Source of the DNA: Acidobacteriota bacterium
GTDB lineage: Bacteria > Acidobacteriota > Vicinamibacteria > Marinacidobacterales > Marinacidobacteraceae
Assembly: GCA_022826195.1 (NCBI GenBank)
Contig: JAJDVI010000012.1
Coordinates: 71,583-135,582, forward strand
Length of the DNA: 64,000 bases
Reading direction: 5' to 3'
Shown: piece by piece, positions 608 to 58,945 of the stretch
How the letters are laid out: each line of letters opens with the position of its first letter
Position numbering within the stretch: the first letter of the stretch is position 1
Program-made: the position numbers and the translations under genes
The notes under the pieces: model-generated
What the model was told of the DNA's origin: nothing
Databases searched by the model: none
The model's input: the letters and a program-made list of their open reading frames with translations, nothing else

Positions 608-1633
608 GTGGGTGCGCGAGAACCTCCGCCCGGCCGCCGGGACGAGGAGTTCCATCAGACCCTCCGCCCGCGGGACTTCGGGGAGTACGTCGGCCAGACC
701 GCGGTCCTCGAACAGCTCGAGATCAGCGTCGGCGCGGCGCGAGGCCGGGGAGAGGCCCTCGATCATGTGCTCCTCCACGGCCCTCCGGGCCTCGGCAAGA
801 CCTCGCTCGCCGCGGTGCTCGCGCGGGAACTCGAAGTTCCCATGCACACCTCCGCGGGCCCGCTCGTGCCGCGCACCGGCGACATGGTGGCGCTGCTGAA
901 CGCGCTGTCGCGCAACGAGATCCTGTTCATCGACGAGATCCACCGCCTCGCTCCCGCCGTCGCGGAGGTCCTCTATCCCGCCATGGAGGACCACTACGTG
1001 GACATCATGGTCGGTGAGAAGCTGGGCGCCCACAGCCTCCGCATCGACCTGCCGCCCTTCACGCTGGTGGGGGCGACCACCCGCGCCGACCTGCTGACCG
1101 GCCCGCTGCGGGACCGGTTCCCGCTCGTCCACCAGCTCGAGTTCTATTCGGTCGAGGAGGTCGAACGGGTGCTTTCGCGCGCCGCGCGGGTGCTCGGGGT
1201 GCACCTCGAGCCGGACGCCGGACAGGAGATCGCCGCGCGGGCCCGGGGGACGCCGCGGGTCGCCAACAACCTGCTGCGGCGGGTGCGGGACTACGCCGAG
1301 GTGCGCAGCGACGGGGTCATTCGCCGGGACACGGCGCTCGCGCTGCTCGAGATCGCCCAGGTCGACGAACAGGGGCTCGACCGTTTCGACCGCAAGATCC
1401 TCGAGAGCCTGCTGGACAACTTTGCCGGCGGGCCGGTGGGGGTGGCCAACCTGGCCGCCACCCTGGGGATGGACAACCGCACTCTGGAAGAGGTCCACGA
1501 GCCGTATCTCATCTACCGCGGCTTCCTGCGGCGGACGGCGAAGGGACGCATGATCACCGACCGGGGCGCGAGGCACCTGGGGCGCGCCGCCTCGGGGACG
1601 CTGTTTCCGGAGACGCCGAACGCCAAGGCGTGA
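608..1633 (+). CDS. ruvB: Holliday junction branch migration helicase RuvB
   Basis: LRPRDFGEYVGQ N-terminus, Walker A LLHGPPGLGKTSLA, RuvB C-terminal winged helix; GTG start. Confidence 0.9.
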   Translation: MGAREPPPGRRDEEFHQTLRPRDFGEYVGQTAVLEQLEISVGAARGRGEALDHVLLHGPPGLGKTSLAAVLARELEVPMHTSAGPLVPRTGDMVALLNALSRNEILFIDEIHRLAPAVAEVLYPAMEDHYVDIMVGEKLGAHSLRIDLPPFTLVGATTRADLLTGPLRDRFPLVHQLEFYSVEEVERVLSRAARVLGVHLEPDAGQEIAARARGTPRVANNLLRRVRDYAEVRSDGVIRRDTALALLEIAQVDEQGLDRFDRKILESLLDNFAGGPVGVANLAATLGMDNRTLEEVHEPYLIYRGFLRRTAKGRMITDRGARHLGRAASGTLFPETPNAKA

Positions 1634-1663
1634 TCCCGGCGCCGGCGACGGTCGATTCGAAGG

Positions 1664-2731
1664 TTGCGGACTTCCGACTTCGCCTACGAACTGCCCGCGG
1701 AACTCATTGCGCAGGCGCCGCCCGCGGCGCGGAGCGACGCCCGGTTGCTCCACCTCGGTGCTGACGGCCGGACGGCGCACCTGGAGTTTGCCGATCTCCC
1801 GTCGCTGCTCCGGCCGGACGATCTGCTGGTGCGGAACGTCACCCGGGTGATCCCCGCCCGCGTGCCGGCCAGGAAGGAGGTGGGCGGCGGGCGCGTCGAG
1901 GTGTTCCTCCTCCCGGGGGACGAGGGGCCCGGAGGGCTCTTCCGGGCCCTCACCCGGCCGGCGCTGCGGCCGGGCGTCCGCCTGCTCGCCGGCGAGGGAG
2001 ACCGGGTCCGCCTCGAGGTGGGAACGGATCTCGGCGGCGGGCAGCGCCAGATCCGGATCCTCTCCGGCGCGGCGGGGGTTCTCGACCTCGCAGAGCAGGT
2101 GGGCCGGACGCCCCTGCCGCCCTACATTCGCCGTGACCTCGAGGCGTCGGAAGGTCCGGACGGCACGGACCGGGAGCGCTATCAGACCGTGTACGCGCGG
2201 TTTCCGGGCTCGGTGGCCGCTCCGACCGCCGGTCTCCACTTCGAATCCGGGATGTTCGCCCGGTTGCGCGAAAGAGGCATCCGGGTCGTGGACCTGGTCC
2301 TGCACGTCGGCTACGGGACGTTCGCCCCGGTGCGGGTCGAGGACCCGCGCGACCACGAACTGGCGGCCGAGCGGTTCTTCCTTCCCGATGCGACCCGGAG
2401 GGCGGTCCTCGCCCAGTTGGCCGAGGGCCGCCGGGTGGTGGCGGTCGGGACGACCACCGTCCGGGTGCTCGAGACCCCCGGTGTTCTGGAAAGCGACGGC
2501 ATCGCCGGCTCGACCTCGCTGCTGATCCTCCCGGGCCACCGCTTCCGGGTGGTCTCCGCGATGCTGACCAACTTCCATCTGCCCGGGAGTTCGCTCCTCA
2601 TGCTGGTCGCGGCCCTCGGCGGAACGGACGCGGTGCTCGCCGCCTACCGCGAGGCGGTACGGCGCCAGTACCGCTTCTACTCCTACGGCGACGCCATGTT
2701 CGTGGAGAAGGGCGCCCCGGCGGCGCCGTGA
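1664..2731 (+). CDS. queA: S-adenosylmethionine:tRNA ribosyltransferase-isomerase QueA
   Basis: hallmark N-terminus DFAYELPAELIAQAP, length 355 aa; TTG start. Confidence 0.85.
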   Translation: MRTSDFAYELPAELIAQAPPAARSDARLLHLGADGRTAHLEFADLPSLLRPDDLLVRNVTRVIPARVPARKEVGGGRVEVFLLPGDEGPGGLFRALTRPALRPGVRLLAGEGDRVRLEVGTDLGGGQRQIRILSGAAGVLDLAEQVGRTPLPPYIRRDLEASEGPDGTDRERYQTVYARFPGSVAAPTAGLHFESGMFARLRERGIRVVDLVLHVGYGTFAPVRVEDPRDHELAAERFFLPDATRRAVLAQLAEGRRVVAVGTTTVRVLETPGVLESDGIAGSTSLLILPGHRFRVVSAMLTNFHLPGSSLLMLVAALGGTDAVLAAYREAVRRQYRFYSYGDAMFVEKGAPAAP

Positions 2732-2737
2732 TGGCAC

Positions 2738-2795
2738 TGCCGGCCTGGAACGCCGGTCTCCAGACCGACACCGCGGCGCCCCCCCACCGGGAGAA
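2738..2795. repeat. REP-like GC-rich palindromic repeat (reverse-complement orientation of the 32.5 kb copy)
   Basis: GCCGGCCTGGAACGCCGGTCTCCAGACCG...CGCGGCGCCC matches RC of 32540-32600 element. Confidence 0.6.
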
Positions 2796-2874
2796 CTGGC
2801 GCGCCGCGCACGTCGTAAAGCCCACCCGGCAAAGGCGGCTCCTACCTCGGCGTTGCGCTCGAGAGTGGAGGTGA

Positions 2875-2915
2875 CGCAACGGCTTGGAACGCCGGCTTCA
2901 GCCGGCACAGCAGCG
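2875..2915. repeat. REP-like repeat, core CGGCTTGGAACGCCGGCTTCAGCCGGCAC
   Basis: near-identical core at 6640-6670 and reverse-complemented at 17120-17150. Confidence 0.65.
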
Positions 2916-3003
2916 CGCAGCGCTGCGGGCGGTTCATCGCCACGGATGCTCAGGCGGCAGGGAGACGGGACCCGGCGGCCAGGGCTCCTACAATCCGCCA
3001 CCC

Positions 3004-3405
3004 ATGAAACGCCGAAGCGTCGGAAGCGGAGTCTCCTGGGAAACCGAATTCGGCTACTCCCGCGCCACCCGGATCGGCGACCGCATCCTGGTCTCCGGCA
3101 CCACCGCAACCGGGCCGGACGGGCCGGTGGCGATCGGCGACCCGGCCGAACAGACGCGATACGCCATCGGGAAGGTCCGCACCGCGATCGAGTCCCTCGG
3201 CGGCACCCTCGACGACGTCGTCCGCACCCGGATCCACGTGAAGCCGGGGACCGACTGGGAGCCGGTGGCCAGGGTCCACGGCGAGTTCTTCGGGTCCGTC
3301 CGGCCCGCCTGCACGCTGACCTACGCGGATCTCATCGGGGAGGAGTACCTCGTCGAAATCGAGGTCGAGGCGGTCGTCGGCGCCGCCGCTCCGGAGGGCG
3401 CGTGA
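3004..3405 (+). CDS. ridA: RidA/YjgF family reactive-intermediate deaminase
   Basis: YjgF signature region RIGDRILVSGTTA...IHV..TDWE.V..V...FF, ~133 aa from ATG 3004; the longer ORF start at 2884 is unlikely. Confidence 0.7.
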   Translation: MKRRSVGSGVSWETEFGYSRATRIGDRILVSGTTATGPDGPVAIGDPAEQTRYAIGKVRTAIESLGGTLDDVVRTRIHVKPGTDWEPVARVHGEFFGSVRPACTLTYADLIGEEYLVEIEVEAVVGAAAPEGA

Positions 3406-6400
3406 AGGTCGCCGGGCCGTTCGCGGGCGTCCTGCTCCTGCTCGGGGCGCTGGCCGCGCCCGCCGCGGCGCAGGGACCGGTCCGGCGCGCCGCGGTTCCC
3501 GACGGATTCGAGGTGCCCGCGCAGGTACTCGGGGACATCGACTTCCGGATGGTGGGACCGTCGCGCGGCGGGCGGGTGACCACGGTGACGGGCATTCCCG
3601 ACCAGCCGTACGTCTTCTACATGGGTTCGACCGGGGGCGGCGTCTGGAAGACCGAGAACGCCGGGGTTTCGTGGACGAACCTGTCGGACAAGGAGTTCGC
3701 CGTTGGCTCCATCGGGGCGGTGGCGGTCGCGCCCTCGGATCCGAACGTGGTCTACGTGGGCACCGGCTCCGCCTGCCCGCGCGGCAACATCTCCGTCGGC
3801 AACGGCGTCTACCGCAGCACCGACGCCGGGCGCTCCTGGACCCACGTGGGTCTGGAGGCTGCCGGCCTCATCGGCCGGATCGTGGTGGACCCGGACGATC
3901 CCGACCGCGCCTTCGTCGCGGTGCTCGGTCAGATCTTCGGCCGCTCACCCGAACGGGGCGTCTACCTGACGGAGGACGGAGGGAAGACCTGGACGGCGTC
4001 GCTCCAGATCTCCGACGCGACCGGCGCCGTGGAGCTCGCGATGAACCCGGCGAACCCGCGGGAGGTCTTCGCCGCGATGTGGCCGGCGGAGCGGAAGCCG
4101 TGGACCCTCATCGACGGCGGCGCCGAGGGGGGCCTCTACCGCACCCGGGACGGGGGCGGGTCGTGGGAACGGCTCGGAGGCGGATTGCCGGAAGCCTCCG
4201 AGGAAAACCCGGTCGGCCGCATCGGCGTGTCCATCGCCGCATCGGACCCGCGCCGGGTCTACGCGCTGGTCACCGCCGCCGAGGAGCGGGGCGGTCTTTA
4301 CCGGAGCGAAGACGGCGGAGACACCTGGACGCGGGTGAACGGCGACCGCCGCCTGCGGGGCCGCGGCTGGTACTACAGCCACGTGGTCGCCGACCCGACC
4401 GACCCGGACACCGTCTACGTCCTGAACGCCCCCTTCCTGAAGTCGGTGGACGCCGGCAAGTCCTTCCGGACGGCGCGCGTGCCCCACGGAGACAACCACG
4501 ACCTGTGGATCAACCCGAACGACTCCCGGATCATGGTGGAGGCGAACGACGGGGGAGCCACCGTGACCCTCGATGGGGGCGAGAACTGGTCGTCCATCCA
4601 CAACCAGCCCACCGCCGAGTTCTACCGGCTCACCGTGGACGACGAGTTCCCGCGGCGGCTCTACGGGGCGCAGCAGGACAACTCGACGATCAGCGTGCCG
4701 TCCTGGACCGACAGCGGCCTCTCACCCGAAGCCCACTGGTGGGACGTCGCCGGCGGCGAGAGCGGGCACATCGCGGTGACCCCCGGCCGGCCCGAACTGA
4801 CCTACGCGGGCAACTACATCGGCCAGATCGACCGGTACGACCGCGACGAGGCCGGCGCGCGCAACGTGATCGTCTATCCCGAACTCGCCGACGGGACGGC
4901 CCCGCGCGACCTCCAGTACCGCTTTCAGTGGAATGCCCCCATCGTCGTTTCCCGGCACGACCCGGAGGTCGTCTTCCACACCTCCAACTACGTCCATCGC
5001 ACCACCGACGGCGGCCTCTCGTGGACGACCATCTCGCCCGACCTGACAGTGGGGGATCCCGAGAAGGGCGCGCTACCGGGCAATCCGGTGCAGCACGACC
5101 ACACCGGCGTCGAGGTCTACGGAACGATCTTCGCCCTCGGGGAGTCTCCCCGCGCGTCCGGCGTCCTCTGGGCCGGCACCGATGACGGCCTGGTCCACCT
5201 GACGCGGGACGGCGGCGGGTCCTGGACCGAGGTGACCCCGCCGGGAATGCCGGCCGGCGGCACCGTGAACAGCCTCGACGTCTCCGCGCGTCACGACGGC
5301 GGGGTTCTCCTCGCCGTGCAGCGGTACCGCGAGAACGACTTCGAGCCCTACGTCTTTCGCACCACGGACTTCGGAGCGACGTGGACGCGTCTCGGCAGCG
5401 ACGGGGGAATACCGCCGGGTCACCCCGCGCGGGTGGTCCGGGGGGACCCCCGGGCCGAGAACGTCCTCTATCTGGGGACCGAGTTCGGGCTCTTCCTGAG
5501 TCTGGACGGCGGCGAGCGCTTCGTTCCCTTCGGGGACCTTCCGGCCACCCCGATCACCGATCTGCAGGTGGCGGGGGACGAGCTGCTGGTGGCCACCCAG
5601 GGCCGGTCGTTCTGGGTGCTCGACGACCTCACGCCGGTGCGGGCGCTGGCGGGCCGTGCGTGGGACGCGCCGGCGCTCCTGCCGGCGGGAACGGCGGTGC
5701 GGCTGGCCACCGGCGGCAGCCGGCCGTTCCGCGGTCCGGGCGCGCCGGAGAACCGTCCGGCGGGGGCTCTCCTCCACTACTTCCTGCCCGGGGATCTTGA
5801 AGAGGGTGACGAACTCCGCCTCACGGTCACGGACGCGAACGGTGAGGTGATCCGGGAGTTCGAGCGGAAGCCGGCGTCCGGCGCCGAGCGCGAGGAGTCC
5901 GGGGAGGAGCAGCCGAATCCCGACGCCGTGCTGGAAACGGAAGCCGGACTCCAGCGGATCGCGTGGGACCTGAAGTACAAGCGTCCCGAACTCCTGAAGG
6001 GCGCGGTGATGTCCATCTCCTATACCGGGGGCGCGTTCGTGATGCCGGGGTCCTACGCCGCCTCGCTGTCCTTCCGCAAGGAGGGTGGGGAGGAAGTCCG
6101 GGGCGATCCCGTCCGGTTCGAGGTGCTGAAGGACCCGCGGACGGCCGTCACCGAGGACGATCTCCGCCAGCAGCACGACCTGGTGCGGCAGTCGCAGGCG
6201 CTGCTCGAGCGCGTGCACGAGCGGATCGGCGCGCTCCGGGAAGCCCGCGACCAGTTGGAGGCGGTCGAAGAGCGGGCGCGGCAGGCGGAGCGCTGGACCG
6301 ACGAACTCGAGGAGGCGTCGGAGACCCTGCGGAAGGGTCTGACCGAGGTCGAGGACGAACTCATCCAGACGAAGAACGAGGCCGGTCAGGATCCCGTCAA

Positions 6401-6639: not shown

Positions 6640-6775
6640 GGCTTGGACCGCCGGCTTCAGCCGGCACCGCGCATCGGTTCCTGAGCAGGGGCGTCGGCTC
6701 GGAGCGCCGGCCTCCGGCCGGCATCGCGCGGGAGCGCGAAACCCGCGTCGATGGCGCTCTCCGCGAATCCATGCC
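6640..6775. repeat. Composite REP-like mosaic element (two modules)
   Basis: module 1 CGGCTTGGACCGCCGGCTTCAGCCGGCAC; module 2 GGAGCGCCGGCCTCCGGCCGGCATCGCGCGGGAGCGCGAAACCCGCGTCGATGGCGC matches 58715-58775 with 2 mismatches. Confidence 0.7.
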
Positions 6776-6845
6776 GGTGCGCGAGCGTTTCCTGGGTGTT
6801 ACACTGGCCTGCACATGCACACTTTGAATGTGCAACACAACGACA

Positions 6846-7132
6846 TGTCCAGAATCCACCTCATCGTTACCGAGGCCCAGAAGGTCCGCTACCAGGGCCA
6901 GGCGGCCCGCGAGGGAAAGTCGCTCGGCGCCTGGCTGCGCGAAGCCGCGGAGGAGAGAATCAGCCGCCCGGCCGCAAGACGCTTCGGCACGCCGGAGGAG
7001 GTGCGCACGTATCTCGAGGGATGCTGGGAACGGGCGGCCGCTGGCGGTGGTCCGGACCGCGAACCCGATTGGGAAGAGACGAAGAAGCTCATCCTCGATT
7101 CGAAGATTCGCGGGCCCGAAGAGTTCGCGTGA
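6846..7132 (+). CDS. vapB: Ribbon-helix-helix antitoxin (VapB/CopG-like)
   Basis: MSRIHLIVTEAQKVRYQGQAAREGKSLGAWLREAAEE RHH fold; directly upstream of and overlapping the PIN gene; alternative ATG at 6817. Confidence 0.6.
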
Positions 7133-7530
7133 CCTTCATCGAGACGAACGTCTTCCTGTTCGCGGTCGGACGACCGCATCCCTTGAGGGAGGAAGCCCTT
7201 CGCGTGCTCGACCGGGGGATGCGGAGCAGTACGGAGTTCGTTACCTCGGCGGAGGTCCTTCAGGAGGTGCTCCACGTGTTTTCGCGGCGCCGACTCCTGG
7301 AGCGTTGCGACGACGCGTTCGGACTGGTCGAACGGGTGGTCTCGGATGTGTGGTCGCTGGAGCCGGAGGATGTCGCGCTTGCCCGGACATTGGCCGACCG
7401 CCACCCCGAGCTCGAAGCGCGCGATCTCGTCCATATGGCCTGTTGCCTGCGGCGGCAGGCGACCGATCTCGTCACCTTCGACCGCGGTCTCGCCGCCGCC
7501 TGGGCGCGGCGGTCGCGATCCCGGCCGTAG
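7129..7530 (+). CDS. vapC: PIN-domain ribonuclease toxin VapC
   Basis: GTG start overlapping vapB stop; PIN acidic residues (IETN, EVLQEV, ARDLV, TFD); ~133 aa. Confidence 0.7.
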   Translation: MTFIETNVFLFAVGRPHPLREEALRVLDRGMRSSTEFVTSAEVLQEVLHVFSRRRLLERCDDAFGLVERVVSDVWSLEPEDVALARTLADRHPELEARDLVHMACCLRRQATDLVTFDRGLAAAWARRSRSRP

Positions 7531-7956: not shown

Positions 7957-9177
7957 TCACTCGTCCGTCGGTCCCGGCAAGTCCTCCAGCAAGCCCTCCC
8001 GGTACGGGAACAGCGCTGGGGTGCCGCCGGTGTGGAGGAAGACCACCACGTCGGTGTCGCTGAATTGGCCGTTGCGCGCCATGTCGAACAGACCCGTCAT
8101 GGCCTTCCCGGTATAGACCGGATCGAGGAGGATTCCCTCGGTCCGGGCGGTCAACGCGATCGTCTCCACGACGTCCTCGTTCAGGATGCCGTAGCCCTCG
8201 CCGACGTATTCGTCGTGGACCACCACGTCAGAGGGGCCGACTTCCAGGTCGAGCCCCATCGCCTCAACCGTCTCCTGCGCGATGGCGAGCACGTTCGCTT
8301 CGCTCGGGGCCTTGCTGCCGCCGGTGCTGATCCCGATGATCCGCACGTCGGGCGCGAGCATCTTCGCCCCGACCACGAGCCCGGCCTGGGTGCTGCCGGA
8401 GCCCGAGGCGTGGACCACGTGGGTGATCGTCACGCCGGCGTCGCGCGCCTGGGCGACGAGCTCCCGGAAGCAGTTCGCGTAGGCGACCGAGCCGAGCGGC
8501 AGCACCATGTCGCCACCCGTGCGCGAGCCGCCCACGGACACCACGTAGGGATTCCGTCCCGCCTCGCGTTCCGTCGCGGCGATCTCGTCCACCATCGCCT
8601 CCCGGTCCTCGCCCGGCTCGATGATGCGCACGTCGGCGCCCAGAATCCGGTCGAGCAGCAGGTTGCCGTCCGCGGGCGCTACCGACTGGTCCTCCCGGCG
8701 CGCCAGGACGAGGATCGGGTCCATGCCCAGCCGCCGCGAACCGGCGGCCGTCATCCGCGCCCAGTTGGACTGCACGCCGGCCCAGGTGATCACGCTGTCG
8801 CTGCCTTTCGCGACCGCGTCGGCGAGGATGAAGTCGAGCTTTCGCGCCTTGTTGCCGCCGAAGGCGAGCCCGGTCTGGTCGTCACGCTTGACGAACAGGC
8901 GGGGGCCGCCGAGTTCCGCGGCGAGTGTGGGCATCTCCTCGAAGGGGGTCGGGAGGTGAGCGAGCGGGGCCTGTTCGAAACGGCCGACGGCCTCGTCGAA
9001 GATGGTCATGGGGTCGGTGGTGTCTCCTTCCAGGTCGCCGGCGCCGGCGCCGCCGCAGGCGGAAAGACTGGCGGCGAGGAGGCCCCCACCGGCGACCATC
9101 GAGATTGAGCGGAGTGCGTTCACGGGCAGTCCTCCAGGGCGGGCGAGTTTACGCAGGCAGATCCGGAAGGGTGTCAT
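7957..9177 (-). CDS. PLP-dependent ACC deaminase / D-cysteine desulfhydrase family protein, probable lipoprotein
   Basis: GGNKARKLDFILADA (PLP-lysine motif), family-typical glycine-rich stretch; LSAC lipobox; true start may be internal (MVAGGG at ~9099). Confidence 0.7.
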   Translation of the reverse strand: MTPFRICLRKLARPGGLPVNALRSISMVAGGGLLAASLSACGGAGAGDLEGDTTDPMTIFDEAVGRFEQAPLAHLPTPFEEMPTLAAELGGPRLFVKRDDQTGLAFGGNKARKLDFILADAVAKGSDSVITWAGVQSNWARMTAAGSRRLGMDPILVLARREDQSVAPADGNLLLDRILGADVRIIEPGEDREAMVDEIAATEREAGRNPYVVSVGGSRTGGDMVLPLGSVAYANCFRELVAQARDAGVTITHVVHASGSGSTQAGLVVGAKMLAPDVRIIGISTGGSKAPSEANVLAIAQETVEAMGLDLEVGPSDVVVHDEYVGEGYGILNEDVVETIALTARTEGILLDPVYTGKAMTGLFDMARNGQFSDTDVVVFLHTGGTPALFPYREGLLEDLPGPTDE

Positions 9178-9204
9178 TCGACGACTCCGGAGCCGTCCGC
9201 CGGG

Positions 9205-9362
9205 TCAGGCATGTGTCTAATCCGGGTTCGGAGGGCGAGGCATGTGTCCTATTGGGAGTCGGCTGAATCCGGGCATGCGTCAATTCCGGGTTCGGGAAGC
9301 GAGGCATGTGTCCATTTCGGAGCCGGCTGAATCCGGGCACGTGTCCATTGGGAGCCCTGCCG
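9205..9362. repeat. Tandem repeat, ~63-bp unit (two alternating ~32-bp subunits) x ~2.5, lower GC than surroundings
   Basis: subunits GCATGTGTC(T/C)AAT..CCGGGTTCGG.A.GCGAG and GCATGTGTCC.ATT.GGAG.CGGCTGAATCCGG repeated at 9207, 9238, 9270, 9302, 9334. Confidence 0.7.
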
Positions 9363-9394
9363 GTTCAAGCGGCGCGCCGTGAGGTGGTTGGGGT

Positions 9395-9475
9395 TGCGAC
9401 GTGCGCGGCGCGGCGCGCCGCGCGTGCCGGTCTGAAGACCGGCGGTCCCGGCCGGCGCGCCATGGGGAGGCGGTT
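9395..9475. repeat. REP-like repeat (GTGCCGGTCTGAAGACCGGCG variant)
   Basis: GTGCGCGGCGCGGCGCGCCGCGCGTGCCGGTCTGAAGACCGGCGG aligns with 32540-32590. Confidence 0.65.
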
Positions 9476-9517
9476 CCGGGCCCCTCACTAGAATCACGCC
9501 GCGTCAGGAAGCACTGT

Positions 9518-11125
9518 TTGGCCCGGCTCAAGTCCCACATCTCGACGGACTCCGACGAGTTCCGGGCGAATGAGGCGCATAACCGCGCACTCTGCGAGAC
9601 GCTCCAGGAGCGGCTGGCCGAGGCCCGCCAGGGGGGCGGCGGCCGGGCGCGGACCCGGCACGCCGAGCAGGGGAAGCTCTTCGTGCGGGAGCGGATCGAA
9701 CGGCTCGCCGATCCGGGTTCGCCGTTTCTGGAGATCGGACCGCTCGCCGCCCACGACTGCTACGACGCTCCCACTCCGGCCGCCGGCCTGGTCACCGGGG
9801 TGGCCTCGGTTTCGGGACGACTCGTCATGGTGGTCGCGAACGACGCCACCGTGAAGGGCGGGACCTACTACCCGCTGACCGTCAAGAAGCACCTCCGCGC
9901 CCAGGAGATCGCGGACCGCTGCGAACTGCCCTGCGTGTACCTCGTGGACAGCGGAGGGGCGTTCCTGCCGCTCCAGGCCGAGGTTTTCCCCGACCGCGAC
10001 CACTTCGGCCGGATCTTCCGCAACCAGGCGGTCATGAGCGCCCGCGGCATCCCGCAACTCGCGGCGGTGATGGGCATGTGCACGGCGGGGGGCGCCTACG
10101 TCCCCGCCATGAGCGACGAGGCCGTCATCGTCGAGGGCACGGGGACCATCTACCTCGGCGGCCCGCCGCTCGTGAAGGCCGCCACCGGCGAGGAGGTGAG
10201 TCCCGAGGAACTCGGAGGGGCCCGGGTCCACACCGAGCGTTCCGGGGTGGCGGACCACCTCGCGGAGGACGACGCCGCGGCCATCCGGATCCTCCGGGAA
10301 GCCGTCGGACGGCTGCCCGCCGGCAACCGAGACCCCATCCGCGACGCCGACCCCGAGCCGCCCGACTACCCGGAGGAGGAGATCCTCGGCATCTGGCCGC
10401 GAGACCGCCGGGTCCGGGTGGACATCCGCGAGACGCTCGCCCGGCTCCTCGACGGAAGCCGCCTCGACGAGTTCAAGGCGCGCTACGGGACGACGCTCGT
10501 GACCGGCTTCGGCCGTATCGAGGGGATCACGGTCGGGATCGTGGCCAGCAACGGCGTCCTCTTCAGCAAGAGCGGGCTGAAGGGCGCGCACTTCGTCCAG
10601 CTCTGCGCCCGCGAGGGTCTGCCGCTGCTCTTCGTCCAGGACATCACCGGGTTCATGGTCGGGGCCCGCTACGAGCAGGGCGGGATCGCCAAGGACGGGG
10701 CCAAGATGGTGAACGCGGTGGCGACCGCGGAGGTGCCCAAGCTCACCCTGATCGCGGGCGGCAGCTTCGGCGCCGGCAACTACGCCATGTGCGGGCGGGC
10801 CTACGATCCGGCCTTCGCCTGGTCCTGGCCGGCGAGCCGCATTTCGGTGATGGGAGGGGAACAGGCCGCCTCCGTCCTGGTCCAGGTCAAGCGCGATCAG
10901 CGCGAGCGCGCCGGCGAGGAGCTGAGCGGTGCCGAAGCCGACGAGATCGCGACACCCGTGCGGGAGAAGTACGAACGCGAGGGGAGCCCCTACTACGCGA
11001 CCGCGCGTCTTTGGGACGACGGCATCGTGGACATGCGGCACACGCGCCGGACGCTCGCCCTGAGCCTGGCGGCCGCCGCGAACGCGCCCGTTCGGAGCTC
11101 CGGGCACGGCATCTTCCGGATGTAG
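9518..11125 (+). CDS. Biotin-dependent acyl-CoA carboxylase, carboxyltransferase (beta) subunit (methylcrotonyl-/geranyl-CoA carboxylase type)
   Basis: strong family similarity across ~530 aa ([50 protein letters not shown]); start is uncertain (no ATG; TTG/CTG near 9518); upstream part of the ORF is REP sequence. Confidence 0.8.
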
Positions 11126-16427: not shown

Positions 16428-17066
16428 GTGCCCAAACTACCGAACCGGCCGGATCCCGCCCGACTGCGGGATCGCGAGCCCCACCTGATCTCGCTGCCTG
16501 CCGGCTCGACGCTCCACCGGGTGTATCGCCGGGGCGGCCCGTACCCCACGCTCTGGAACGCGTTTCGTTTCTTCGGTCCTACTTCGGCGCGGTTCGATCA
16601 CCACCTGCCGGATGGTTCCGGTGAGCCGCGTGAACAGGAGCGGGGCGTGTTGTACGCGGCGGCGGACATCGTCACGGCGTTGGCCGAGGCCTTTCAGCAG
16701 CGACGCACCGTGAACCGGCGGGCGGATCGCCCGTGGCTCGTTTCGTTTGCGCTGTCCCGCGAACTGACATTGCTCGACCTGACGGGTACCTTCCCGGTGA
16801 GCGTGGGCGGCTCCATGACACTCGTGACCGGTCCGGCGCTCCACGCGCAGAACTGGTCCCGCGGCTTCCACGATGCGTACCCGACGATCGAGGGGCTCTA
16901 CTACCCCGGTTCCCTGACAAATCGGCCCGTCGTGGCGCTCTACGAACGGGCGCTGGACCTGGGTCCGTTTCCCGCGACCCCGACGGTTCACCGAGCGCTG
17001 GATGACCCGTTGTTGATCGAACCGCTCCGGAACGCCTGCCGTACCCTCGGCTACGACCTGCTGTGA
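16428..17066 (+). CDS. RES-domain toxin (putative NAD+ glycohydrolase)
   Basis: R-E-S triad context: SARFDHH (Arg), YAAADIVTALAE (Glu), GLYYPGS (Ser); ~212 aa. Confidence 0.65.
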   Translation: MPKLPNRPDPARLRDREPHLISLPAGSTLHRVYRRGGPYPTLWNAFRFFGPTSARFDHHLPDGSGEPREQERGVLYAAADIVTALAEAFQQRRTVNRRADRPWLVSFALSRELTLLDLTGTFPVSVGGSMTLVTGPALHAQNWSRGFHDAYPTIEGLYYPGSLTNRPVVALYERALDLGPFPATPTVHRALDDPLLIEPLRNACRTLGYDLL

Positions 17067-32499: not shown

Positions 32500-32595
32500 T
32501 TCGCTGACCCCGGGCACCCCCGGCACGGCCTCCCAGCGCGGTGCGCGGCGCGGAGCGCCGCGCGTGCCGGTCTGGAGACCGGCGTTCCAAGCCGG
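32500..32595. repeat. REP-like repeat (GTGCCGGTCTGGAGACCGGCGTTCCAAGCCGGC variant)
   Basis: GGTGCGCGGCGCGGAGCGCCGCGCGTGCCGGTCTGGAGACCGGCGTTCCAAGCC; related copies at 9400, 2745 (rc), 58790 (rc). Confidence 0.7.
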
Positions 32596-51404: not shown

Positions 51405-51470
51405 CAGGGGTCTTTCGCCGCCCGCGGCGGCGGTGCCGGCCTGAAGGCCGGCGCTCCCTCCCTCACCTTC
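51405..51470. repeat. REP-like repeat variant with GC hairpin
   Basis: CCGCCCGCGGCGGCGG hairpin + GTGCCGGCCTGAAGGCCGGCGC. Confidence 0.5.
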
Positions 51471-58699: not shown

Positions 58700-58945
58700 C
58701 CCCGGTTCGGAGCTTCCGGAGCGCCGGCCTCCGGCCGGCATCGCGCGGTAGCGCGAAACCCGCGCCGATGGCGCCCCCGGCTTGGAACGCCGGTCACCAG
58801 ACCGGCACGCGCGGTGCTCCGCACCGCGCACGGCGCAGCCCCCTGCGGAAAGGTGGCTCTCGCCTCGGCATGAGGCTCAACCGCACTGATGGCGCCGCCG
58901 GCCTGGAACGCCGACGTCGGGTCGGCGCCCGCGAACCGTCATCGG
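58700..58945. repeat. Cluster of three or more REP-like modules (mosaic element)
   Basis: 58715-58775 near-identical to 6702-6760; 58776-58840 is the reverse complement of the 32540-32600 type; 58880-58925 is a third GCCGGCCTGGAACGCCG copy. Confidence 0.7.

Follow-up and report, generated by a model that had tools for sequence, protein, structure and literature searches.

What is a short array of tandem repeats doing between two divergently transcribed metabolic genes? The question is raised by a 64,000-nt stretch of an Acidobacteriota genome (contig JAJDVI010000012.1, hereafter the window), where such an array occupies a spacer in which a regulator might be expected to bind. An earlier note, made from the letters of the window, had offered two answers, namely iterated sites for LiuR/AtuR-type control of the downstream operon or a variable-number tandem repeat (VNTR). 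Based on comparison with related genomes, we propose that the array is very probably one locus of a lineage-specific, dispersed intergenic minisatellite, here called T1, and not an operator of the neighbouring genes.

The array lies inside a 394-bp divergent spacer, between the start of a PALP-family gene (9123) and that of a carboxyltransferase (CT) gene (9518), the latter opening a plus-strand operon with the order CT-AtuA-enoyl-CoA hydratase-biotin carboxylase. It spans 9208-9362 and comprises four full units of 31, 33, 31 and 33 bp and a truncated one, arranged as head-to-tail direct repeats that start at 9208, 9239, 9272, 9303 and 9336 (spacing 31/33/31/33). All five units open with GGCA[T/C]G[T/C]GTC (GGCAYGYGTC), the heads being in order GGCATGTGTCT, GGCATGTGTCC, GGCATGCGTCA, GGCATGTGTCC and GGCACGTGTCC. 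Two monomer types alternate, A of 31 bp (...TCCGGGTTCGGRRRGCGA) and B of 33 bp (...GGAGYCGGCTGAATCCG). The fifth unit (9336-9359) is cut short and joined to the tail of another repeat, and the adjoining end-piece (9360-9384) reads as the remnant of an array of a second family, T2, that is absent from the window. Tandem Repeats Finder (TRF) returned a period of 64, 2.1 copies, 85% matches and a score of 194 over 9208-9339. Both the sequence and TRF confirmed the earlier description of about five subunits of two alternating types; the higher-order dimer also stood, with a period of 64 rather than 63 bp and 2.1 rather than some 2.5 copies. The array is indeed AT-richer than its surroundings, with a GC content of 0.59-0.61 against 0.70-0.79 in both flanks, and it is, as had been stated, not a CRISPR array, since the units follow one another directly, each interval being a single unit of 31-33 bp, and no unique spacers separate them. 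The GGAC-like half-sites that had been suspected did not bear inspection: the units lack an inverted GGAC half-site and the GTCC...GGAC symmetry with it, and are direct repeats, not palindromes.

Within the window this locus stands alone. A hidden Markov model (HMM) built from 192 family units matched the 64 kb only at 9208-9330, with no second T1 copy, and the matches to the 11-mer elsewhere in the window with up to two mismatches were all two-mismatch and scattered (15 found against 18.9 expected by chance). A possible sixth, degenerate unit at 9162-9195 (repeat family D3) was rejected because the stretch is also conserved in L131, a relative that has no T1 array (L numbers denote sequence blocks from relatives); we treat it as probable ancestral spacer. 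Reading the head as a restriction site was likewise dropped, the SphI palindrome GCATGC not being avoided elsewhere in the window (5 observed against 6.8 expected).

Beyond the window, we scanned 185,579 species, one genome each, for three heads spaced 18-28 nt apart, and 116 blocks were returned. The T1 family, which belongs to the marine Vicinamibacteria around Candidatus Marinacidobacterium, consists of 32-bp tandem repeats made of RGCATGCGTCYAT and a CGG-rich tail. Its unit was found in four Candidatus (Ca.) Marinacidobacterium genomes, one Vicinamibacteria metagenome-assembled genome (MAG) and five other Acidobacteriota MAGs; the blocks from other phyla held units unrelated to T1 and are noise. 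The arrays count 3-49 units (up to 1.57 kb), with a period of 32 or alternating 31/33 in three of the four Marinacidobacterium genomes and in the other MAGs. In the fourth, OZ251549, the same head stands in shorter units of about 11-21 bp. More specifically, the head GCATGTGTCA there opens units of 11, 13 and 19-21 bp (L013, L078, L082, L116), a two-helical-turn variant, the 20-21-nt arrays being those in L013, L078 and L116. The consensus of 192 distinct units was RGCATGCGTC(T/A)AT(T)(Y)CGG(R)(R)(Y)CGG(Y)(Y)G(R)CC(S)(R).

The distribution of these arrays is that of a dispersed repeat. Related complete or near-complete genomes each hold about 4 to 7 separate T1 regions, scattered round the chromosome. 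Array orientation plotted against chromosome position had a two-armed look in one genome and not in the other three, the 8-kb GC skew was too noisy, and no polarity is proposed. The coding-periodicity fraction was 0.00 in 47 of 47 family arrays, and the gene context was divergent (13), convergent (8) or co-oriented (8), so that every orientation relative to neighbouring genes is represented. The A-B dimer of the window matches, at 54 of 64 positions, a dimer in another MAG, located where a LarA-family gene and a penicillin-amidase gene converge; since that spacer separates two 3' ends, no promoter is expected there. Clustering of the flanking proteins showed that the arrays share few orthologous loci (a LarA/FAH locus in 6 genomes, a second locus in 4 and a third in 3), with the PALP-CT spacer common to the window, L001-L006 and L032. 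Such shared positions are kept even between genomes with only 86% identity in the flanking proteins. Apart from the IstA/IstB proteins of an IS21-family insertion sequence (IS), no gene family was shared across non-orthologous array flanks, which leaves no recurrent neighbour as a candidate binding protein or RAYT-like transposase. The spacer gave no blastn match to plasmids, and the three-head pattern returned 5 matches in viral contigs, all with unrelated units. In the literature collection searched there was no paper on these repeats or on Marinacidobacterium, exact-head matches being unrelated primers and constructs.

The orthologous spacers speak most directly to the question of regulation. 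Starting from homologues of the PALP protein (70-94% identity), we obtained ten more copies of the spacer, to which L032 was added from the genome scan (Table 1). L032 (Ca. Marinacidobacterium sp. OZ244986) is an orthologue of the window locus, with PALP and CT proteins 88.6% and 93% identical, which places the window in this genus or in a close relative of it. Contigs with an identical PALP protein differ in copy number (10 T1 units in L001, 11 in L002 and L003), and the T1 array is absent from L131, L007, L132, L133 and L134, all of which retain the operon together with its -10-like box. Between the last unit and the CT start lie 131 to 515 nt, and between the PALP start and the first unit 85 to 2109 nt. 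At this spacer the array is dispensable for the adjacent genes, unpositioned and hypervariable. It is neither positioned nor required, and the LiuR/AtuR-type operator reading is therefore not supported. The earlier note had itself named an unconserved position together with hypervariable copy number as what would speak against a regulatory role, and the relatives display both; its VNTR alternative, by comparison, is borne out by the 0-11 T1 units at this spacer.

The units themselves are constrained, and unevenly so. A nearly invariant head of 12-13 nt, GCATG[C/T]GTC-N-AT, is followed by a tail that keeps only C.G...CGG..G.CC, the retained tail positions being C16, G18 and C22-G24, with G27 and C29 less strongly kept. 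Among arrays with 10 or more units (19 arrays, 329 units), nucleotide diversity was 0.039 in the head (positions 2-13) against 0.271 in the tail (positions 14-32), a difference of about 7-fold; since the head motif served to find the arrays, the search itself accounts for part of the head's conservation between arrays, a bias that this within-array test reduces and does not remove. Tail diversity exceeded head diversity in each of the 19. An altered head was seen in 33 of 383 in-phase units, nearly always by a single base. Unit intervals (n = 431) were mostly 32 bp (350), with 39 of 31 bp and 36 of 33 bp, and the 31- and 33-bp units came mainly from A/B-alternating arrays, in pairs summing to 64. 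Because neutral divergence combined with homogenisation of whole units should not spare half a unit, the sparing of the head while the tail diverges suggests that something reads the head.

Three further 32-bp families adjoin T1 arrays. T2 shares the tail of T1, has a different head and is 24/32 identical to it; T3 is weakly similar to T1 and probably homologous to it; T4 is unrelated. Other large arrays were also noted in Ca. Marinacidobacterium, namely a 19-bp unit repeated 88 times (L082 5283-6990), the unrelated 32-bp T4 repeated 31 times (L078 6698-7694) and a 121-bp unit repeated 6 times (L079 1277-2017), and these genomes are unusually rich in non-coding satellites.

The arrays are also recurrent sites of insertion. 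Genome CBDHFO01 carries an IS21-family element of roughly 2.5 kb that encodes IstA (470 aa; rve and Mu-transposase C-terminal domains) and IstB (265 aa; E = 3e-76), and six copies of it abut T1 or T2 units. The element ends in TGTCAAGAGACACCAACTTTTGCGCA... and TGTAGGAGACGGCCG..., and its end repeats GAGACACCAACTTTTGCGCA are unrelated to the T1 unit. At copies with both junctions intact, the 5-bp target duplications (TCTAT, CGGCT) consist of unit sequence, and the arrays therefore existed before the element inserted. By a rough estimate, finding six copies in so little array DNA, a few kb, is far above random expectation, although the blocks had been chosen for containing arrays. A solo remnant of an IS end occupies the PALP-CT spacer of L007 (5800-5830) in place of an array. 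This IS21 element is absent from most array-bearing genomes and from the window. Another kind of insertion splits the array of L004 (4480-5885), where 1.4 kb of lower-GC DNA entered at, or within a few nt of, a unit boundary; it carries two small genes (87 and 192 aa) without a Pfam match, and no terminal repeats or integrase were seen in it. Together with the cassettes in L004, L006 and L032, the IS copies mark the arrays and their surroundings as insertion-prone.

Several explanations of the array can be weighed against these observations. Its place within a divergent promoter region, its iteration at about three helical turns and its conserved head would all suit operator or upstream activating sites for a LiuR/AtuR-type (MerR/TetR) or other local regulator of the carboxylase/AtuA operon or of PALP. 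This is nevertheless very improbable, since the same units sit at unrelated loci, including the promoter-less spacer between convergent genes; T1 is missing from five relatives that keep the operon and its box, one of them (L132) with a spacer of just 112 bp; start-codon distances are not conserved; the units are direct repeats; and the cluster is without a regulator gene, no MerR or TetR gene occurring among the open reading frames (ORFs) scanned from 464 to 21090. On the comparative data the operator reading appears largely refuted, and the generic idea of iterated protein binding would survive only at the level of the whole family. The array might instead act as RNA, a multi-module small RNA or protein sponge with one 32-nt unit per module. 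The plus strand of the window array folds better than its shuffles (z = -3.6) and the minus strand does not (z = -1.2), and a comparable role has been suggested for the constant-size repeats of Bacillus, which B. coagulans transcribes (PMC8161180). We nonetheless judge it improbable: Rfam 15 gave only sub-threshold chance matches on the window spacer and a 1.6-kb array (Rubella_3, 16 bits against 35; MIR8757, 29 against 83), a scan of 8900-9700 for sigma-70 promoters and intrinsic terminators found nothing, the predicted fold consists mostly of long-range pairs formed by quasi-palindromic CAUGUG heads with one another, and the arrays are of mixed orientation relative to neighbouring transcription units. 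A hairpin in the tail was considered separately and rejected, as the pair 21-28 shows 40 C-A mismatches (anti-covariation) and canonical covariation is absent; mutual information in the tail mostly reflects subfamilies, with some G-C/C-G exchange at the pair 17-31. The association of six IS21-family copies with T1/T2 units in one genome, and the solo IS end that replaces the array in L007, invite the further thought that the units are debris of a mobile element, that is, multiplied transposase-binding end repeats of an IS21-like or miniature inverted-repeat transposable element (MITE)-like element. This is hardly credible given that the target duplications show the arrays to have been there already, that the IS end repeats bear no relation to the unit, that most array genomes lack this IS and that the arrays have no conserved terminal inverted repeats.

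A harder choice is posed by a purely neutral or selfish VNTR, a junk satellite kept by the balance of slippage expansion and deletion, with no reader and no role. The number of T1 copies varies from 0 to 11 at the orthologous spacer and reaches 49 elsewhere, relatives with the same genes lack the array, insertions of IS21 and of genes inside arrays are tolerated, orientation and distance to genes are inconsistent, and T2 has a different head, all of which fits such a satellite. It is set back by the position-specific variability of the units (0.039 against 0.271, in 19 of 19 arrays) and by the persistence of arrays at orthologous loci despite bacterial deletion bias, and we regard it as rather unlikely. 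The explanation that we prefer, and hold as a whole to be moderately probable, is that T1 is a satellite family which at this locus is accessory DNA, and whose head is read by a common factor. In the window, a 31-bp A and a 33-bp B monomer form a 64-bp higher-order unit, and the array would lie as accessory DNA between two short divergent core promoters, those of PALP and of the carboxylase operon, as the operator of neither. Slippage during replication, or unequal recombination between units, would add and remove copies, a mechanism suggested by the pattern of variation, and homogenisation within arrays would let sequence type and copy number shift fast between close relatives. A spacing of 32 bp, or of 31 + 33, corresponds to about three helical turns and would line the heads up on one face of the helix. 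There, the head may be recognised by one trans-acting factor shared by every array, of which a sequence-specific DNA-binding protein is the likeliest kind; this part of the proposal, drawn from the conservation pattern, is put forward tentatively. The role of such a factor would be generic and chromosomal, not gene-specific. The arrays in addition serve as landing pads for the IS21-family element and probably for small gene cassettes.

Some observations weigh against this preferred explanation. The step to a binding factor is taken from the conservation pattern only, and part of that conservation was introduced by searching with the head motif, which the within-array test lessens without abolishing. 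T2 keeps the tail with a different head, so that the head is not indispensable. A neutral satellite would account just as well for copy numbers of 0-49, for loss in close relatives and for the toleration of IS insertions. Dispersal in the genome of the window is, moreover, deduced from relatives, the 64 kb holding one locus. A bolder version of the preferred explanation would make T1, T2 and T3 a previously undescribed "satellite with a box", in which a recognition box of 12-13 nt recurs in phase every three helical turns and the arrays are maintained at a few constant loci throughout a family of Vicinamibacteria. On these arrays a dedicated DNA-binding protein would polymerise for nucleoid organisation or domain marking, the attraction of IS21-family transposition and of cassettes being a side effect; we consider it doubtful.

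The features of the locus and of its orthologues are collected in Table 1.

Table 1 Features of the window locus, dispersed elements and orthologous PALP-CT spacers (window coordinates unless an L number is given)
Feature	Position or spacer length	Strand	T1 units	Details
PALP / D-cysteine-desulfhydrase-family gene	7957..9123	-		GTG start at 9123; GGAGGA Shine-Dalgarno sequence at 9130-9135; lipoprotein-type signal (LSAC)
-10-like box of PALP gene	9146..9151	-		TAAACT; TAAACT, TACACT or TATACT in orthologues
T1 unit A1 (31 bp)	9208..9238	+		GGCATGTGTCTAATCCGGGTTCGGAGGGCGA
T1 unit B1 (33 bp)	9239..9271	+		GGCATGTGTCCTATTGGGAGTCGGCTGAATCCG
T1 unit A2 (31 bp)	9272..9302	+		GGCATGCGTCAATTCCGGGTTCGGGAAGCGA; best family-HMM match
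T1 unit B2 (33 bp)	9303..9335	+		GGCATGTGTCCATTTCGGAGCCGGCTGAATCCG
Truncated fifth T1 unit	9336..9359	+		GGCACGTGTCCATTGGGAGCCCTG
T2-array end-piece	9360..9384	+		CCGGTTCAAGCGGCGCGCCGTGAGG; conserved after T2 arrays in L001, L002, L131
REP-like GC-rich hairpin	9424..9448	+		GTGCCGGTCTGAAGACCGGCGGTCC; separate dispersed family
-10-like box of CT operon	9484..9494	+		CTCACTAGAAT; fixed 24-27 nt before CT start in all orthologues examined
CT (MCC-beta-like) gene	9518..11125	+		TTG start after AGGAAG; first operon gene
REP-like hairpin copies in window	2747-2771(-), 9424-9448(+), 32564-32588(+), 51433-51457(+), 58784-58808(-)			
IS21-family copies	L035 3541-6058, 6492-8000 (continuing into L087); also L024, L089, L091, L047 (CBDHFO01); L105			
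Window spacer	394 bp		5	T2 end-piece remnant, 1 REP-like hairpin
L001 spacer	857 bp		10	T2 array
L002 spacer	887 bp		11	T2 array
L004 spacer	1822 bp		1 + 4	split by 1.4-kb, lower-GC, two-gene insertion
L006 spacer	1789 bp		8	toxin-antitoxin genes between PALP and array
L032 spacer	2466 bp		4	T2 array + about 2 kb of small genes
L131 spacer	917 bp		0	only related T2 repeat
L007 spacer	676 bp		0	T2 x2 + IS-end remnant
L133 spacer	649 bp		0	REP hairpins only
L134 spacer	728 bp		0	one small gene
L132 spacer	112 bp		0	no repeat; both -10-like boxes retained

The two -10-like boxes of the spacer are kept in every orthologue examined: CTCACTAGAAT is likely to be the core promoter (-10 element) of the CT operon, and TAAACT is likely to be the -10 element of the PALP gene promoter. 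Readings of the T1 head itself as a promoter, of the sigma-54, extracytoplasmic function (ECF) or other type, were dropped on inspection by eye because the spacings do not fit. The repetitive extragenic palindromic (REP)-like element that had been noted beside the array is genuine, as the window contains 5 copies of its hairpin family (GTGCCGGTCTGRAGACCGGCGKTCC) against 0 expected. One copy shows compensatory stem changes, with GGCC..GGCC replacing GGTC..GACC, and the hairpin is present in relatives too, at times as tandem 83-85-bp units (L006 4287-4660, L041).

Some features of the neighbouring genes were also noted. The PALP-family (D-cysteine-desulfhydrase/ACC-deaminase) enzyme carries an N-terminal lipoprotein-type signal (…LLAASLSAC GG…; window 9060-9123, minus strand), which suggests an exported or membrane-anchored form, and in some relatives (L008, L009) a second, signal-less paralogue adjoins the signal-bearing one. 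The region around PALP is a variable accessory or defence region. In the window it holds a PIN-domain ORF and a RES-domain toxin (6751-7530 and 16428-17066, both on the plus strand), and the same place downstream of PALP in relatives (L004-L009, L032, L131-L134) holds McrBC, HigB/HTH, PIN/RHH, AAA_15/21 ATPases and a DUF4011 helicase. In L001, a long-read contig, CT was called as a 218-aa fragment (4487-5143) and a fusion with AtuA (1623-4490), which is probably a frameshift error of assembly and not biology.

For the annotation of this locus, the outcome is that the operon and PALP promoters are compact and the repeat is accessory, which removes a tempting but wrong regulatory annotation. The analysis also describes dispersed tandem repeats of a 32-nt class from a marine lineage of uncultured acidobacteria, and so supplies a further example, in a distant phylum, for the question why certain bacteria retain satellite families of constant length. 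In practice, T1 arrays could be used as VNTR markers for strain typing in these MAG lineages.

Among known repeats, the VNTRs of the mycobacterial interspersed repetitive unit (MIRU) type have units of 40-100 bp, often with small ORFs that overlap the stop and start codons of flanking genes in operons. Like T1, they are dispersed intergenic minisatellites with few to some tens of loci and copy-number polymorphism between strains; T1 differs from them in its 32-bp unit, in having no coding signal and in lying also between divergent or convergent genes. The REP elements and bacterial interspersed mosaic elements (BIME) of enterobacteria and pseudomonads are palindromic, alternate in orientation and number hundreds of copies per genome. 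They share with T1 an extragenic location, a mosaic of alternating unit types and their use as targets by insertion sequences (here of the IS21 family), whereas T1 consists of direct repeats with all heads on one strand, no supported hairpin and few loci. Plasmid centromere and iteron arrays, such as the 43-bp sopC repeats of F and parC of R1, are direct repeats that each hold a protein-binding box at integral helical-turn spacing. T1 resembles them in its direct repeats spaced at integral helical turns, with the putative recognition head GCATGYGTCNAT in place of the box, and departs from them in being chromosomal, scattered and of 0-49 units, with no adjacent par or rep genes; the neighbours of the arrays are metabolic genes, toxin-antitoxin genes and IS21, and no partition or replication-initiator genes are adjacent.

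Subirana and Messeguer have described bacterial intergenic tandem repeats of constant size and variable sequence, 20-21 and 52 nt long, mainly in Firmicutes (Bacillus) and of unknown function, for which nucleoid protein binding or small RNAs have been proposed as roles (PMC8161180). As with T1, these are non-coding, occupy many loci per genome, are restricted to lineages and have a fixed length, with short motifs common to the repeats of a species. Several families of one length characterise that class, and here T1-T4, all of 32 bp, occur side by side; T2, and probably T3, are however homologous to T1, and the common 32-bp length may therefore simply be inherited. T1 is set apart by its length of 32 nt (period 32 or 31+33), its Acidobacteriota host and its head-plus-tail architecture. 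Overall, the constant-size repeats of Subirana and Messeguer are the closest described phenomenon, with MIRU and REP/BIME as looser analogues.

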